Position numbers: made by a program
Origin: Elusimicrobiota bacterium
GTDB lineage: Bacteria; Elusimicrobiota; Elusimicrobia; Elusimicrobiales; UBA9959
Direction: 5' to 3'
Assembly (NCBI GenBank): GCA_037137395.1
Contig: JBAXKK010000055.1
Span: forward strand, 1 to 17,375
Length of the DNA stretch: 17,375 nucleotides
In this document: in pieces, positions 1-17,375 of the stretch
Numbering within the stretch: position 1 is the first letter of the stretch
How the letters are laid out: every line of letters starts with the position of its first letter

Positions 1-3000
1 GCCGCTGACTTGTACCCCGGCTACGGCGCCACCATGAGCGCGAACAGCGCGGCGGGGCAACCGCGGTTTGTGACAGTTTTATTGTACCCCGCAAACAACG
101 CCACTGATGTTTCCCAAAGTCCGTCTTTGAATGTTACGGCGCTTATCCCCAACGCGACCGTGCAATATAATTTCCAGGTTGACACGCTTCAGACCATGAA
201 TTCGCAAAGCGGCAATCCGCAGGGCGACTTTGACCAGACAGTGGCGCAGCTGTTTGCTTCATCGGGGGCGTTCAGTGGGCAGGATAAGACCATCGCAATT
301 TCCAGCGACGCTTATTTAGGGGCAAGCACGGCAACCTTCGCCTTCTATTCAAGCAGCGCAAAACTTAACGCCAACACGGTGTATTACTGGCGCGCGAGGG
401 CCAAGCCCTCAACCGGCGTTTATGGCGAGTGGTCCAGCACATTCAGTTTCACCACCGGGCAATTTGCCTCTGCCAACCCGGCTAACCATCTGGCGATAAG
501 CGGCGTAACTATGTCGGGCGTCACCGGCCCCGGTCTGGCAACGATAAGCTTTAACATAGCCGAAAACAACGTGACAACCGGTACCTCAACCAATGGCGGG
601 GCGTATAACACAGCCGACTGGGTATTTGTAAAGTTCTCCACCGCAGCGGGAGCGGACGGCACCTGGCAGCATGCGACATTAACCGGCGGCACGGTGGGCG
701 CCGGCGCAACACTTGCGGCAGCAAGCGATAATAAAGGCGTTTACCTGAACCATACGACCAATTCACTCTATTGGACATCAAGCGTTAATGTCACCTGGAA
801 TCTAGCCGCCGATGGTATATTGTTTTCAAAAGTATACGTAAAGGTGTTCGCCATCTCCATGGTGAAAGTGCCGACAGGTGATTTTATTTACAATGTTAGT
901 AATATTGGCGGCAGCACATTTAACAATTACAATTCCGGAACGCAGGCCATAATTAGCGGCCCCGGAACCGCCACCGGTACTGGTACAAACAATCTCCCCT
1001 TGGACGCACCTGTAGGCTGGCCTAACGGCTACAGTGGTTTCTATATTGGCCGCTACGAGATAACACAGGGTCAGTACGCCGACTTCCTTAATACGATACC
1101 ATCAACTCTAGCGTCTAGTCTTCACTATGGCACCGTGGCAAACGGCCACAACATGACTTACACCGCCGGCAATTCATACGGCTTAAAGTACGCGGCAGTA
1201 GACCCGAACGCCGCCAAGAACTACCTATCATTTGATGACGGATGGCGTTACCTATCCTGGGCCGGATTACGCCCGCCGACTGAAATGGAATTTGAAAAAG
1301 CCGGGCGGGACCTGTCGCCCGATGCCCGCATTTACCCTTGGGGCAGCACCCCTGTTCCGGACTGGATAACATACGCCCCTCGAAATGAAGGCGGTAACCT
1401 AGCCTGTATACGCCGTTACATGAATTACGGCAACTTGGGCTATTGCACAAGAGTTCTTGATGTAGGCCGCTATATGGGGGGTGATGTGTACCGCACAACG
1501 GCGGAAACAGGCGCCTCGCCTTGGGGTATAGCTGATCTGGCAGGAAATGTATGGGAACTAGTTATAAATTCCAAATGGGCCAGTGTACCGCTGAATGGCA
1601 ACGGAACGCCAACACTTCCGGCAACCTGGCCGGTGCCGGGCGCTGATACTGCCGGTGATCGCGGCGGCGGCTGGGGCAGCGATGCATCGGGCGCTCGTGT
1701 CTCCGACCGTTACTTCGCCAGTTGGGCTAACACTAATCGTAACGGCGATGTCGGCGCGCGAGGTTGCAGGACGCCGTAGTCCTTGTTCCAAGGGTAGGTG
1801 ACAGGTAGCAGGAAACAGGTTGCCGGTGCCAGTAGTAAGGAATAAGGATTAAGTGATAAGGAGTAAGTTTTAATCGGTAGTTGCTTACAACTTACAACTT
1901 AATCATTCCGCAACGCCGAGTTAGAGTATTTTAACGAAGTGGAAAGAGGGCAGTTTATGAAGAAGTTTTTTGTCGGCGGTGATAAGCTCGCAACCGAGCG
2001 ATTTGGCCAGCGCAACATATACGGCATCGTAAACCGTGATGTCATGGCCCATGGCGAGGCGCACCGCCTCTTTGAGAAGCGCCCCGTTAGGGGTTATAAC
2101 CTCAATACCAAGCGAGGTGAAGTTTTCCAAAGCGGACGCGACATCATTGGCGCTAAGTTTCCTGCTATATCTGAGCGCATTGGCCAATTCATAAAGAATA
2201 AGATCCGGGACGGCCAGCTTCTCAATGCCGGAATTAAAATCCTCAAGCAAATCGAGGGCTTCCCGCGTCTCGTTTTCGGTCACGTACCATTTATAAACTA
2301 CCGAAGCGTCGGCGATTTTCATCTTGAGTTGCGGAAGCGGCGTATTATGGCTGTTCCATCTGAACATTTACCGATCTTGGCGGAAATTCTGGCGCGGATT
2401 TTGGACATTTCCTCTATTGTGTTGTCCAGACGGCTTTGGTCGCGCCAGCGGAAACCCAACAGGAGAGTCGCGCGCTTTTCTATAAGCGACATGCTATCAA
2501 ACGCGAATTTTATGTGGTGTCTCATGGTGACAGTATAACAGAAAAAGCTGGCAAAAGCAAAAAAACGGTTAATCAGTACAGCAGTAACCGGTAAGCAGGG
2601 TCAGTACTGCAAAGTATCCGGTAAAATCAGTAACCGGTATCCAGTAGTCAGTAACCAGTAACGGCATTTTAGAGAAGAGTATGGAAACGGTAAAAAAGAC
2701 CAAAATGGCGCCAGGCTCCTTCTTAAAAAGGCGCGCGGTGTCGCTTTTGGGTTTTTTGCCCTCTCTTTTCAATCGTTCTAGTGAAGCCTTTGATGTCTCC
2801 CCGGCGAACGCCGGGGTCCAGTGTCGGAGATGTTCCTGGATTCCGGCTTTCACCCCCAGTTTCACGGTGGGGCAGGTCGCCGGAAAGACGACCGGTTACC
2901 GGTTACTGATGCCGTTGTTGTTCCTGACAACCTGTTTCCTGCTACCTGTAACCTCACCTGCAGCCGACCTCTTCCCCGGTTACGGGTCCGCCAAGAGCGC

Positions 3001-15000: not shown

Positions 15001-17375
15001 GTTACCCCGTAATGTCCAAACTGAACCCGTCGCAGCCGGGGGAATGGGGCAAGATGCTGCGCGAGGTGGTGTTTCCGCAGGCCATGATAAAACGCCTCAC
15101 CGTATCACTGATCCTCAACGAAAACATTCCGGAAGCCGAAGTCCAGAAAGTGAAGGAAGTGGTCAACGATCTGCTGGCGATGGACCCGGCGCGCGGCGAC
15201 GAACTGATAGTGACCAGGGCGCGCTTCGCTCCCATCTGGTACAATTCAGAAACCATCAATATGCTGATGAAGTACGGAATAATGGCGTTGATAGCCATAG
15301 TGGGAATGACAATAGTGGGCCTAGGATTTTTGAAGATGGCTGGAGCGGTCAACAATATGGCTGGAGCTTCGCAGCCGCAGAAGATAGATATGGAGATGGG
15401 CGGGATAGGCGCCCTGGAAAACGGAGAGGACGCGCCGCAGGCGCCGGAGCTGGAGCACAAACCGTCGGCTGACGGCAGCCCGGCGAATCAAATCGAAGCC
15501 GCGCCGTCCGACGGAGTTATTTTTAATGTAAAAGAGGACAAGCTGGCGCTGCTGGTTAAAATGCTGGGCAGGGACACGCCAACTGATATTTCACTGATAG
15601 CCGTACATCTGCCCCAGGGACTAAGAAGCCGCTTCATCGGGCTGCTGCCTGAAGAAACAGCGGGTGAAGTTATGGCAAATATGGCCAAGGTGCGGTTCGT
15701 TGACCCCGAAATGATAGTGCGAATTAAAGAAGAGCTGGAACGGAGGCTCAACGGAGCGGTAGGCGGCTACGAAAAAGTGCTGGAAATTATAGACGGCTCG
15801 GATTCAAAATCAAAAGAACGCCTGCTCAAAAATCTGGAAAAGCACCACCCCGATGTAGCCAGCCAGGTCAGACATCATGTGCTGCTGCTGGAAGACCTGT
15901 ACCTGCTGGACGACAAAGATTTCGCCATACTGGCCGGCGCGGTGACTGTGGAGAAGTGGGCGGTTGTGATCCGCCGTATGCCGGACTCGGCTAAAGAGAA
16001 ACTAAAAGTACAATTGTCGGCGCGCGCCTGGCAGATACTTGAGCAGACGATGAAATACGAGACGCCTCCTGAGGGCAAAATAGACGAAGCGGTTGAAGAG
16101 CTGCTGTCCGCGGCCTGGAAACTCATACGCGAAGGCCGCATAAAAAAGCCGTTGACACCTTCCGCCGATATAAAACTAGAGAACAATGCCGGGGCAAACA
16201 AACCGGCAGCTCCTTCCGCTGCCGCCATAGGCCATGAAGAAGAAAAGAAGGCTTAGCCCGGGCTCATATGGTCACGGCAGGCAGATAAGATATTAGATAT
16301 GGAAGAGTTAAACGATAAATCACCTGAAGACCTTGCCGGAGAAGGGGAGGGGGAAGACAATTTACGCTCCGCCGCTTTTCATTCCGTCCCGGTCCCCGCG
16401 CCGGTTCCGCCGTCCCCGGCGGCGCCAAAAACCACGGCCCCTTTGAAAAATCCGGCCGACCGCGGAAACATAAATTCAGACACCAGATTTTCCGGCATAG
16501 AAAGCATGCCGCGGGAAGCCGGGTTAAAAAGGCCGGTTCCGCCGCCGCCACCTTCGCAGGACAGGGAGCTGCTCAACTATCTGAAGCATAAGATAAATGA
16601 GCTGGAGGGGAAGCTGCGCGAGTCACAGGAAAAAGGGCTGGCTTTCGCTTATGAGCTGAAAGGCCGGGAAGAGGCGAGAAAAGAATCCCGCCGCGAGATG
16701 ACGGAATTTCTGGCCGAGGTAAAAAAGCAGCAGGCCGAGTCAGAATCCGAGCGCGCGCACGGCTTGGAAATGGAAAAAGCCAGGGCGCGCATAGAGGCGC
16801 TTGAACTTAAAATAATGGAATTTTCAGCCCCGCGGCCAGAGCCGCCGGTTCCGCCGCAGCCCGCAATTTCTGTGGAGGAATTTGAGAGAATGAAGGCCGG
16901 GCTCAAGGCGGAATTGGCTGTAGGTTTAGAGATACTGAGCCACAATTTTGTCTCCGTGGGAGAAGTGCGTGCCAGCATGCGCAAGATGACCGAGATGGAA
17001 GTCTATTTCAATAATTTTTCATCCAAGATCGCGGAGCAGGAAAGAAAAAGCGCCGAAGGCTCCGCCGCTTTGGACGCCCTCGAGGGCAAGCTGGAATGTT
17101 TTAAGACGCTTATTGACGACCTTAGAAGAGCTATGGATAAGCTCGACGCGCGCAATCCCTCCGATAACAAACACTAACCCCAACTATTTTTATAAGGTAA
17201 CGGCATGCCTGCAAGTTCGCGGGGTTGCCGTAGGACTGGAACGCAAAATCAGGGTCGCCCGCTTTTTTAAATGATTACCTCTTGGAGCGGCTGCAGGGGG
17301 ATCTGGGTTAGCGAAACCGTACCGGAGTTCGGCGCTTGCATAAGCGCGCCGAGCGAGGTCCGGAAGGGCGAGCAC

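Follow-up and report, generated by a model that had tools for sequence, protein, structure and literature searches.

Parts of the gene cassette analyzed here are familiar from several described bacterial systems. With the flagellar motor core (6scn, 1lkv, 8ucs) the module shares RBM3 with its collar and TM2, the FliG middle and C-terminal domains, a full-length MotA with cytoplasmic domain, a MotB with its Asp and OmpA domain, and FlbD. In contrast to that core, the module's rotor is a single chain bearing a signal peptide of the cleavable type; RBM1/2, FliG_N and FliM/N are missing, as are export gate, rod and filament. The module also has altered torque charges, links to an outer-membrane (OM) barrel-TPR protein, a kinase and a coiled coil, and several paralogous types per genome. 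The Bacteroidota machinery for type 9 secretion (T9SS) and gliding (SprA, PorV, cargo with a C-terminal sorting domain or CTD, SprB-SprF, GldLM, GldKN) is matched by a SprA-like gene, PorV-like barrels and C-terminal CTDs, and the pairing of one barrel with one cargo recalls the SprB-SprF anchor pair. In flagellum-gated two-component systems (C. jejuni FlgSR, with FlgS as the kinase, V. cholerae FlrBC and P. aeruginosa FleSR), a kinase is likewise tied to MS-ring and rotor proteins; those systems need the export apparatus and drive rod and hook genes, whereas the module's kinase is membrane-anchored, is encoded alongside the rotor or joined to it in one protein, and has no flagellar regulon. 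In polar flagellates, the MS ring and rotor gate such kinases (PMC7064773, in excerpt). Engineered FliF-FliG fusions have been found to form rings and support motility, with a flexible FliG ring when FliM/FliN are lacking (PMC10941966, in excerpt), and FliF collar loops are described as passing torque to the rod (10.64898/2025.12.04.692373, in excerpt). Numerous orphan motAB, flbD and fliG genes have been noted in non-flagellated Elusimicrobiota, where their role was called unclear and gliding or twitching was suggested (10.1101/2022.07.08.499144, in excerpt).

The window, which is the entire contig C55 (17,375 nucleotides) of an Elusimicrobiota genome designated G000, carries a cassette of five ORFs on the + strand, separated by gaps of 22, 3, 96 and 42 nt; all five lie where the initial annotation had placed them, and all features below are on the same strand. 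The leading gene (2681-11983) encodes a predicted surface protein of 3,100 aa with Ig/FN3-like domains, beta-propeller-like repeats at about aa 300-600, some seven 110-aa repeats at aa 770-1440, further repeats at aa 1530-2770 and a T9SS-type CTD (11681-11980), one of 18 in the genome, which scores under the Pfam cut-off when taken alone. Domain searches found no catalytic domain in this giant, a putative adhesin. A PorV-like barrel-TPR protein of 536 aa (12006-13616) follows, with a 14-strand OM barrel at aa 88-307 and a C-terminal TPR solenoid at aa 319-532. It matches NF033709 under the cut-off (E 8.5e-23), and its AF2 model (pLDDT 91.7) is matched by Foldseek to PorV (8gl6_F, 6h3i_F) and to the FadL/TodX family with similar scores. 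The histidine kinase (316 aa, 13620-14570) consists of one N-terminal membrane anchor helix, HisKA and HATPase_c, in line with its annotation as sensor-less in that it has no periplasmic sensor. In other Elusimicrobiota its orthologues occur as fusions with the rotor protein. Beyond the fusion gene treated below, the operon ends with a Pro-rich/coiled-coil protein of 292 aa (16299-17177), cytoplasmic and without a TM helix, whose reported kinship to the gene that separates motA from motB on contig C31 was recovered (E 7e-9); an ESM Atlas search with it returned nothing at 0.9 or above. Promoter and terminator scans gave no usable operon boundary.

The fourth gene (14667-16256) encodes a natural FliF-FliG fusion of 529 aa, here called FG, with a signal peptide, RBM3, one TM helix, a disordered linker, FliG_M and FliG_C. 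The domain assignments of the initial annotation were reproduced, with Pfam matches above cut-off to YscJ_FliF_C (residues 55-187, E 3.5e-11), FliG_M (296-364, E 1.5e-9) and FliG_C (388-492, E 2.3e-12). FG retains only RBM3 and TM2 of FliF and the M and C domains of FliG, with neither RBM1/2 nor FliG_N; a 50-aa disordered linker stands in the place of FliG_N. The periplasmic RBM3 (14763-15236), with a beta-collar-type insertion, is the most conserved part of the protein (dN/dS 0.024 against the related genome G001, compared with 0.14-0.16 for the FliG domains). Its profile matches FliF rings first (6scn, E 1.3e-10) and SpoIIIAG next (5wc3, E 5e-4); the SpoIIIAG ring likewise has an RBM3-like domain outside a flagellum, but without FliG or a stator, and FG is much closer to FliF. 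Within the collar insertion, modeled at pLDDT under 50 in the FG monomer, an [L/M/V]-P-G motif (14994-15002) is kept in 99 of 101 FG proteins and is a candidate grip on an output partner. The inner-membrane helix equivalent to FliF TM2 (15252-15350) is followed by the FliG middle domain (15552-15758), which retains the Gly-Gly linker and has DTPT at the site of the FliM-binding EHPQ motif, where most type A and B cassettes have E-D/E-P, and by the FliG C-terminal domain (15828-16142) with its torque helix (16014-16058). FG has the fold of FliF RBM3 plus FliG M/C, and may form a ring.

The source genome is 98.9% complete with 7.7% contamination in 174 contigs. Elsewhere in it lie a paralogous cassette on C40, a MotA-coiled-coil-MotB locus on C31 and a coiled-coil-FlbD locus on C3, all as previously listed. 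The C40 giant gene comprises only a C-terminal half; a unique 55-mer overlap joins it in frame to the end of C4, for a full gene of ~9,710 codons. The C31 MotA is flagellar-type along its whole length (its PDB matches are to MotA/PomA only, E 1.5e-30), and MotB retains the ion-binding plug-helix Asp and the peptidoglycan-binding OmpA domain. This is the only flagellar-type MotA in the genome, accompanied by two ExbB/TolQ-type PF01618 matches, and no FliG-like gene other than FG was found there. A claimed absence of 27 flagellar and chemotaxis families stands for the seven that were run: FlhA, FliM/N, flagellin, rod, FliF N-half, FliP and CheW had no match in G000, and positive controls gave matches. 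In agreement with the initial annotation, MotAB lies outside both cassettes here and inside them in relatives. G001, of the same genus and with 2% contamination, has the identical split layout with no motAB in either cassette, while in relative G002 the same ileS-linked operon still includes an FG gene, flanked by motA and the coiled coil; by this comparison of gene order, the C31 locus is a relic of a full cassette. Relative G020 has the stator-linked FG closest to that of the window, and the MotA that comes after it belongs with the C31 MotA in one 11-row clade. Upstream of the G020 genes are a receiver and a different kinase, not the cassette kinase. Judged by dN/dS against G001 (MotA 0.055, MotB 0.018, FG 0.12), rotor and stator stay under purifying selection although split apart in G000.

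Across 251 Elusimicrobiota genomes, FG and MotA are both present in 96, both missing from 148 and present singly in 7, with FG without MotA in just 2; 90 of the 251 have both without FlhA. Copy numbers of the two genes correlate (rho 0.85, with kin not independent), and stator sharing looks common because FG copies exceed MotA copies in 22 of 90 genomes. MotA is located at most 5 kb from the rotor gene in 32 of the 36 type-A loci with enough flank, PorV-TPR is at most 4.5 kb away in 40 of 42, and the five cassette types form matching clades in the FliG and MotA trees. The FG architecture occurs in 1-7 copies in most families of the phylum, and truly flagellated genomes (G006) have FG cassettes besides their flagella. 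Co-occurrence, operons shared in relatives, congruent trees and purifying selection all bear out the earlier proposal of a flagellum-independent module of rotor and stator parts.

The rotor-stator interface appears only partly conserved in its charges. As first noted, the window FG keeps the torque-helix Arg (R453, equivalent to R281) and has Gln/Thr at D288/D289. A Glu stands one position earlier (E459, position 287); the C31 MotA retains the R90 equivalent and has Lys at the E98 position. Among type-A cassettes, the D288 position is Gln in 47 of 59, and MotA E98, opposite the basic R281 equivalent, is K/R in 41 of 47, so the torque charges of this type seem only partly kept. Type B, which also has FlbD, is the most canonical (E288 in 22/22, a basic residue at 90 in 15/15), and the family's own flagellar FliG/MotA are themselves non-canonical (R281 = E and E98 = Q, 2/2). 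Close to K264, 35 of the 44 type-A FGs with a linked stator carry an acidic residue versus 3 of 14 others, a comparison confounded by clade and incomplete loci, and the window FG has none. A clean compensatory swap (acidic FliG near K264, basic MotA 98) was rejected and stays no more than a lead: it fits 29 of 44 linked pairs, but the site differs by one residue from the canonical one and the pattern follows clades. The predicted complex of three C31 MotA chains with the window FliG_C scored 0.26 against a mark of 0.32 and is counted neither for nor against pairing.

We tentatively favor a flagellum-derived, proton-driven envelope machine in which a stator-driven ring acts on barrel-anchored surface cargo after export and is read by a built-in kinase, a reading whose chances we put a little short of even. 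More broadly, the evidence points to an ion-driven envelope machine of a kind not yet described, whose role is probably to act on surface proteins, or to sense through them, and not to power their export. CTD-tagged proteins would cross the OM through the SprA-like translocon and be held by their own PorV-like barrel. FG would assemble an inner-membrane ring through RBM3 and its collar, with FliG M and C hanging into the cytoplasm, where a peptidoglycan-anchored, flagellar-type MotA5B2 would engage FliG_C; the single C31 stator would serve both cassettes in trans. With no rod, the collar loop may grip the periplasmic TPR of the PorV-like barrel, so that torque or tension reaches the cargo as spinning, dragging or load-testing. 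The membrane-anchored kinase, which gene fusion links to the rotor, would sit on the ring and turn the assembly or load state of the ring into response-regulator phosphorylation. No chemotactic switch is expected because FliM, FliN and CheA are missing. The fold of FG, the flagellar-type stator, its co-occurrence with the rotor, and the published engineered fusions, torque-passing collar loops and ring-gated kinases speak for this reading. Against it stand the partly kept torque charges, the flexible FliG ring of the engineered fusion together with the disordered linker in FG, the lack of a nearby MotA in most of the window FG's clade, and a neighboring CTD gene in only 15 of 40 type-A loci. 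A more specific version, which we regard as doubtful, is a rod-less rotary motor whose FliF-FliG ring, turned by MotAB, makes a surface filament spin or pulls it along. The filament would be one chain of 3,000 to 9,700 residues, held by a PorV-like barrel that is free to turn, and the rotor-riding kinase would serve as load gauge; if true, it would be a new bacterial appendage motor made from flagellar rotor, stator and type-9 export parts.

Whether the motor instead energizes export depends on how closely it follows the export parts. The initial annotation's GldLM-less, type-9-like route is supported by a divergent SprA-like gene that it had not listed, together with 17 PorV-like loci and 18 CTD proteins, each CTD ending at most 5 residues from the protein end. 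The SprA-like protein (1,776 aa) scores under the TIGR04189 cut-off and has no match in Pfam or in a single-sequence PDB search, yet its profile matches SprA alone in the PDB (E 3.7e-20, three stretches); the profile of the 18 CTDs best matches PorZ (5m11, E 3e-10) and PorU (6za2, E 3e-9). Searches for GldL, GldM and GldN in G000 gave no match, with controls also silent. Unlike the Bacteroidota system, the candidate motor is MotAB-FliG and not GldLM, and it is dispensable for keeping the export parts. MotAB-FG could replace GldLM and energize SprA-like export, at least of giant cargo, as both cassette cargos rank with the genome's largest proteins and relatives without a detected rotor or MotA have far fewer barrels (1-7) and CTDs (0-5) than motor-bearing ones. 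However, 13 of 16 such motor-less relatives (14 of the 16 from one family) keep SprA-like, PorV-like and CTD parts, so the motor is not a general secretion engine. The SprA-like gene is also unlinked to the cassettes, beside lptF/G-like genes, and only 2 of 14 CTD-PorV gene pairs are in a rotor cassette; the other 12 have no adjacent FG, even one with a 3,096-aa cargo. The earlier claim that the motor powers secretion is weakened by these counts, and we consider this role quite unlikely.

The kinase invites a different alternative, that the module is mainly a sensor in which ring and stator detect touch, load or proton-motive force and the kinase signals to CheY-like receivers, with little or no work done outside the cell. 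Contact at the cargo or its barrel would alter the state of the ring or how the stator engages. From gene neighborhoods, the kinase is a steadier partner than the adhesin: 40 of 42 type-A loci have it, versus 15 of 40 with a CTD gene upstream of PorV-TPR, which also loosens the proposed wiring to giant adhesins. Kinase-FG fusions make up 7 of the best 150 representatives, with the kinase part closest to the two cassette kinases; in 11 loci the kinase is fused to the rotor, all with the CTD gene and PorV-TPR upstream and MotA/MotB downstream. Kinases and receivers lie around type-C and many type-A cassettes, an OmpR-like gene and a single-domain receiver gene run divergently from the C31 stator operon, and G000 has 49 receiver-domain matches and no CheW match; 23 of the 49 are in open frames no longer than 172 aa and, with one split copy, agree with the 24 stand-alone CheY-like receivers first reported. 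Kinases gated by MS ring and rotor, as cited above, offer a precedent. Against a mainly sensory role, FG and MotAB occur in cassettes of types B and D with no adjacent kinase, the charges of type B being the most canonical. In the fusions, kinase and FG are separated by a stretch that resembles a signal peptide and ends in A-X-A, so the two may be cut apart; we give a mainly sensory role a low but appreciable chance. It is unlikely that the window cassette works independently of a stator, with FG as a static ring, scaffold or SpoIIIAG-like channel placing barrel and kinase and the C31 stator doing another job. The missing cassette motAB in G000 and G001, the lack of MotA in the locus retrieved for 5 of the 6 members of the window FG's clade, the altered interface charges, the faster-evolving FliG domains and the weak SpoIIIAG match would fit, but the FliG domains are clearly under purifying selection, the stator is retained though no other FliG was found, FG without MotA is rare, and surplus FG copies are found elsewhere. 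The decaying remnant of a flagellum since lost, or an artefact of binning or assembly, to which the fragmented and partly contaminated assembly and scattered orphan fragments of two cassette types might point, is very improbable given intact ORFs under purifying selection, the same layout in G001, a domain architecture that is absent from any flagellum and present in multiple copies across the phylum, and FG cassettes in a true flagellate.

Orphan motAB, fliG and flbD are already in print without a function, and the module offers a concrete candidate role for them. The section of 10.1101/2022.07.08.499144 on these gene families, which also concerns Elusimicrobiota, has no FliF fusion, operon, PorV/CTD link, kinase or ring model. 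Literature searches, with most subscription journals outside their scope, found no account of the FliF-FliG fusion, the cassette or an Elusimicrobiota T9SS, and in searchable papers FliG and MotAB are paired in no system other than the flagellum. A module of RBM3, FliG M/C and stator, present across the phylum and in several copies, would be a natural minimal rotor, which makes testable both the smallest torque-producing unit without FliM/FliN and the use of the motor core apart from type III export, and it extends the type-9-like export route to Elusimicrobiota. Beyond the phylum, one shallow scan found no FG, and other shallow scans returned a single locus in Firestonebacteria and a single contig that bears the label Ignavibacteria but may be misbinned.

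All five open reading frames of the operon were recovered in one orientation where the initial annotation had placed them (2681-17177 of G000:C55, the contig that makes up the entire window), and names of homologues place the source genome, G000, in the Elusimicrobiota. The 529-aa FliF-FliG fusion protein (FG; 14667-16256, plus strand) has matches above cut-off to YscJ_FliF_C (residues 55-187), FliG_M (296-364) and FliG_C (388-492). The 536-aa protein (PorV-TPR) has TPRs and a PorV/PorQ family match below cut-off, the 316-aa protein is a HisKA-HATPase_c kinase with its sole hydrophobic helix at residues 1-27, and for the 292-aa protein neither a family nor a transmembrane segment was found when both were sought. 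The paralogous cassette on contig C40, the MotA-coiled coil-MotB genes on C31 and the coiled coil-FlbD genes on C3 are likewise present in G000. In line with its reported lack of any other flagellar gene, searches of G000 for FlhA, FliM/N, flagellin, rod, the FliF N-half, FliP and CheW gave no match, with the positive controls detected. The same split, with two FG genes, one MotA and one FlbD, is seen in G001, a genome of the same genus, and is therefore not an artefact of the G000 bin. At the head of the second cassette, a single gene of some 9,710 codons is split over the contig-end reading frames G000:C4:42512-57220 and G000:C40:7686-22164, which overlap in frame by a 55-mer without other occurrence. 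Upstream of the giant gene, both cassettes have a protein with Ig and FGE-sulfatase domains (window 10-1779; G000:C4:38824-40644), seen also in loci L143, L145 and L196, that shares a domain with the N-terminal part of the giant. On the minus strand at 1921-2525, between these two genes, a PIN-domain gene and a short overlapping upstream reading frame (2319-2525) are likely an inserted toxin-antitoxin pair; on C4, other small genes occupy the corresponding place.

Among 251 genomes of the phylum, FliG-type proteins were matched in 98, MotA in 101 and FlhA in 6. FliG-type proteins and MotA occur together in 96 genomes and are both missing from 148, with the misses concentrated in two families (1/81 and 1/60), and the two are correlated in copy number (rho 0.85, with kin not independent). 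The fetched neighbourhoods fall into five recurring types (A-E); type A, to which the window belongs, typically runs PorV-TPR, kinase, MotA, FG, coiled coil, MotB. The proposal of a flagellum-independent rotor-stator module is supported by the 90 genomes with FliG-type proteins and MotA but no FlhA, and by a MotA at most 5 kb away in 32/36 type-A loci with enough flank, a count that excludes three divergent loci (L055, L088, L196). Quick IQ-TREE phylogenies of FliG (102 rows) and MotA (82 rows) both resolve these types, along with several subclades; shared operon inheritance accounts for this agreement no less well than co-evolution. The C31 stator is of flagellar type with the MotB Asp retained, and its locus beside ileS matches gene for gene an operon of a relative, G002, in which motA and the coiled coil still flank an FG gene; G000 has therefore lost that FG and retained the stator.

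The module is real and conserved, occurs across the phylum and, as a system, is undescribed. SwrD belongs to the FlbD family. SwrD is listed as a torque enhancer in PMC13277936, the accessible text of which mentions neither the phylum nor the fusion. According to a 2022 preprint, Elusimicrobiota that lack flagella carry many homologues of motAB, flbD and fliG, the role of which it terms unclear (10.1101/2022.07.08.499144), and a term search of a phylum survey (10.1101/765248) gave no mention of T9SS, MotA, gliding or motility. No published account of the FG fusion or cassette was found in the literature searched.

The AF2 model of FG (61-row alignment, mean pLDDT 76.7) predicts a periplasmic alpha/beta domain with a 70-residue insertion of low confidence, followed by a transmembrane helix (194-232) and, beyond a linker predicted as disordered, the helical FliG domains. 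Foldseek ranked FliG first and FliF RBM3/collar rings next, and a profile of the periplasmic part matched FliF rings (6scn, E 1.3e-10) before SpoIIIAG (E 5e-4) and aligned unbroken with RBM3 and TM2 of a relative's true flagellar FliF. An [L/M/V]PG motif lies in the insertion in 99/101 FG proteins, and the VPG of Salmonella FliF is seen by sequence in the same insertion, HMMER having left the two unaligned. EHPQ, the FliM-binding motif of FliG, is replaced in FG, and the Gly-Gly linker is retained in 58/59 type-A FG proteins. Long N-terminal extensions on two FG proteins, L192:9038-11875 (about 300 aa) and P0060 (about 215 aa), had no match to anything tested. Collar-derived FliF loops hold the rod and transmit torque (10.64898/2025.12.04.692373), and we infer that the [L/M/V]PG loop of FG grips an output partner. 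Against a contact of the ordinary flagellar kind, an engineered FliF-FliG fusion assembles into rings, but their FliG portion is flexible when FliM/N are absent (PMC10941966), and the torque charges of the module are altered.

In Escherichia coli, MotA R90/E98 and FliG R281/D288/D289 form the charge pairs (10.1101/2021.01.07.425829). Alignment to solved structures shows that the window FG retains R453 and the C31 MotA R88, but that the former has E459-Q460-T461 and the latter K96-D97. This pattern is the norm for type A, where, with eight duplicate loci dropped, FliG is basic at 281 in 47/59 and has Glu at 287 in 44/59, and MotA is basic at 90 in 37/47, basic at 98 in 41/47 and acidic at 99 in 38/47, a one-position shift of the acidic residue on both partners. 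Both true flagellar systems found in the family also depart from the canon (281 = E, 98 = Q), so the charge test is not decisive. Full flagellar clusters occur in two relatives (L079-L084; G023, G006), and the R281/E98 pair is missing from their FliG and MotA alike.

As to export, the barrel-TPR model (pLDDT 91.7) shows 14 strands with TPR helices after them, and its structural matches are to PorV and to the FadL/TodX family. G000 encodes 18 proteins with a terminal CTD, the profile of which matches PorZ and PorU best, and a CTD gene adjoins 14/17 PorV-like loci. Nearly all CTD genes of G000 are followed immediately by a PorV-like barrel of their own (14 loci), as if by a rule of one barrel per cargo; SprF is described as SprB's own anchoring barrel (PMC12635249). 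Reading frames of 4,731 and 2,539 aa (G000:C17:10697-24892 and C50:11736-19355) had no detected CTD. A 1,776-aa gene on C6 (G000:C6:30473-35803, L102) matches TIGR04189 below cut-off, likewise in 40/41 genomes, and a 22-sequence profile of this SprA-like protein matched SprA alone in the PDB (E 3.7e-20). The SprA-like gene is divergent, ends in Phe, occurs even in small motor-less genomes and adjoins genes that, by reading their sequence, we label lptF/G-like and ComF-like. Searches for GldL, GldM and GldN gave no match, but their controls were silent too.

With the parts, folds, linkage and selection of the module demonstrated, we tentatively favour a flagellar motor core acting on type-9-anchored cargo, with a kinase read-out. 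FG would assemble as a ring, the stator would engage it in trans, the collar loop would couple to the TPR, force would reach the cargo and the kinase would read out the machine. The module is neither a bacterial flagellum nor a standard T9SS; it most likely works like the flagellar motor core, but applied to type-9-anchored cargo. A stator-free scaffold would fit the altered charge pairs and the starred six-member clade of the window FG, in which no MotA was seen in the fetched loci of 5/6, yet the sixth (G020) has FG followed by a MotA that shares a starred clade with that of C31, and we regard a scaffold as improbable. Decay to a relic is very hard to credit given low dN/dS against G001 for MotB (0.018), MotA (0.055) and FG (0.12; RBM3 0.024, TM 0.016, FliG_M 0.14, FliG_C 0.16); the coiled coil gave 0.21. 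In its boldest reading, the initial annotation had the motor power type-9-like export or surface movement. Such an export route is supported by the presence of SprA-like, PorV-like and CTD parts, but the motor does not seem to be required for it: in 16 of the 41 genomes, FG and MotA both went undetected, and these retain SprA-like (15), PorV-like (16) and CTD (13) proteins, all three in 13. Barrels and CTDs are few in this sample, of which 14/16 come from one family and the remaining two genomes are 86-89% complete. An export engine is thus quite improbable, and the skew of the sample leaves room for a role in the export of giant cargo only.

A mainly sensory device, which is the same machine as the favoured motor with a different output, is unlikely. 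In its favour, the cassette kinase is the steadier partner of FG, found in 40/42 type-A loci (as is PorV-TPR), whereas the barrel is immediately preceded by a CTD gene in just 15/40, so that the suggested link to the giant adhesin is weakened. The kinase is also fused to FG in 7 of the best 150 representatives, the kinase halves matching the two G000 cassette kinases best (E 1e-80 to 1e-97, against 1e-41 to 1e-52 for other kinases), and all 11 fusion loci (four near-identical) have an upstream CTD gene and PorV-TPR and downstream MotA/MotB. The kinase-FG junction retains a signal-peptide-like stretch, and the chain may therefore be cleaved. In polar flagellates, the MS ring and rotor gate kinases (PMC7064773). 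Against a sensory device, no kinase gene adjoins the cassettes of types B and D, and signalling is therefore not universal.

Two different motB genes follow one motA in type D/E cassettes (L051, L052, L090, L093, L094, L098, L202-L206), which suggests a heterodimeric MotB pair. Outside the named Elusimicrobiota, two tandem FG-like genes lie on a Firestonebacteria contig (L261), and a type-B cassette was found on a contig labelled Ignavibacteria (L255), which may be misbinned.
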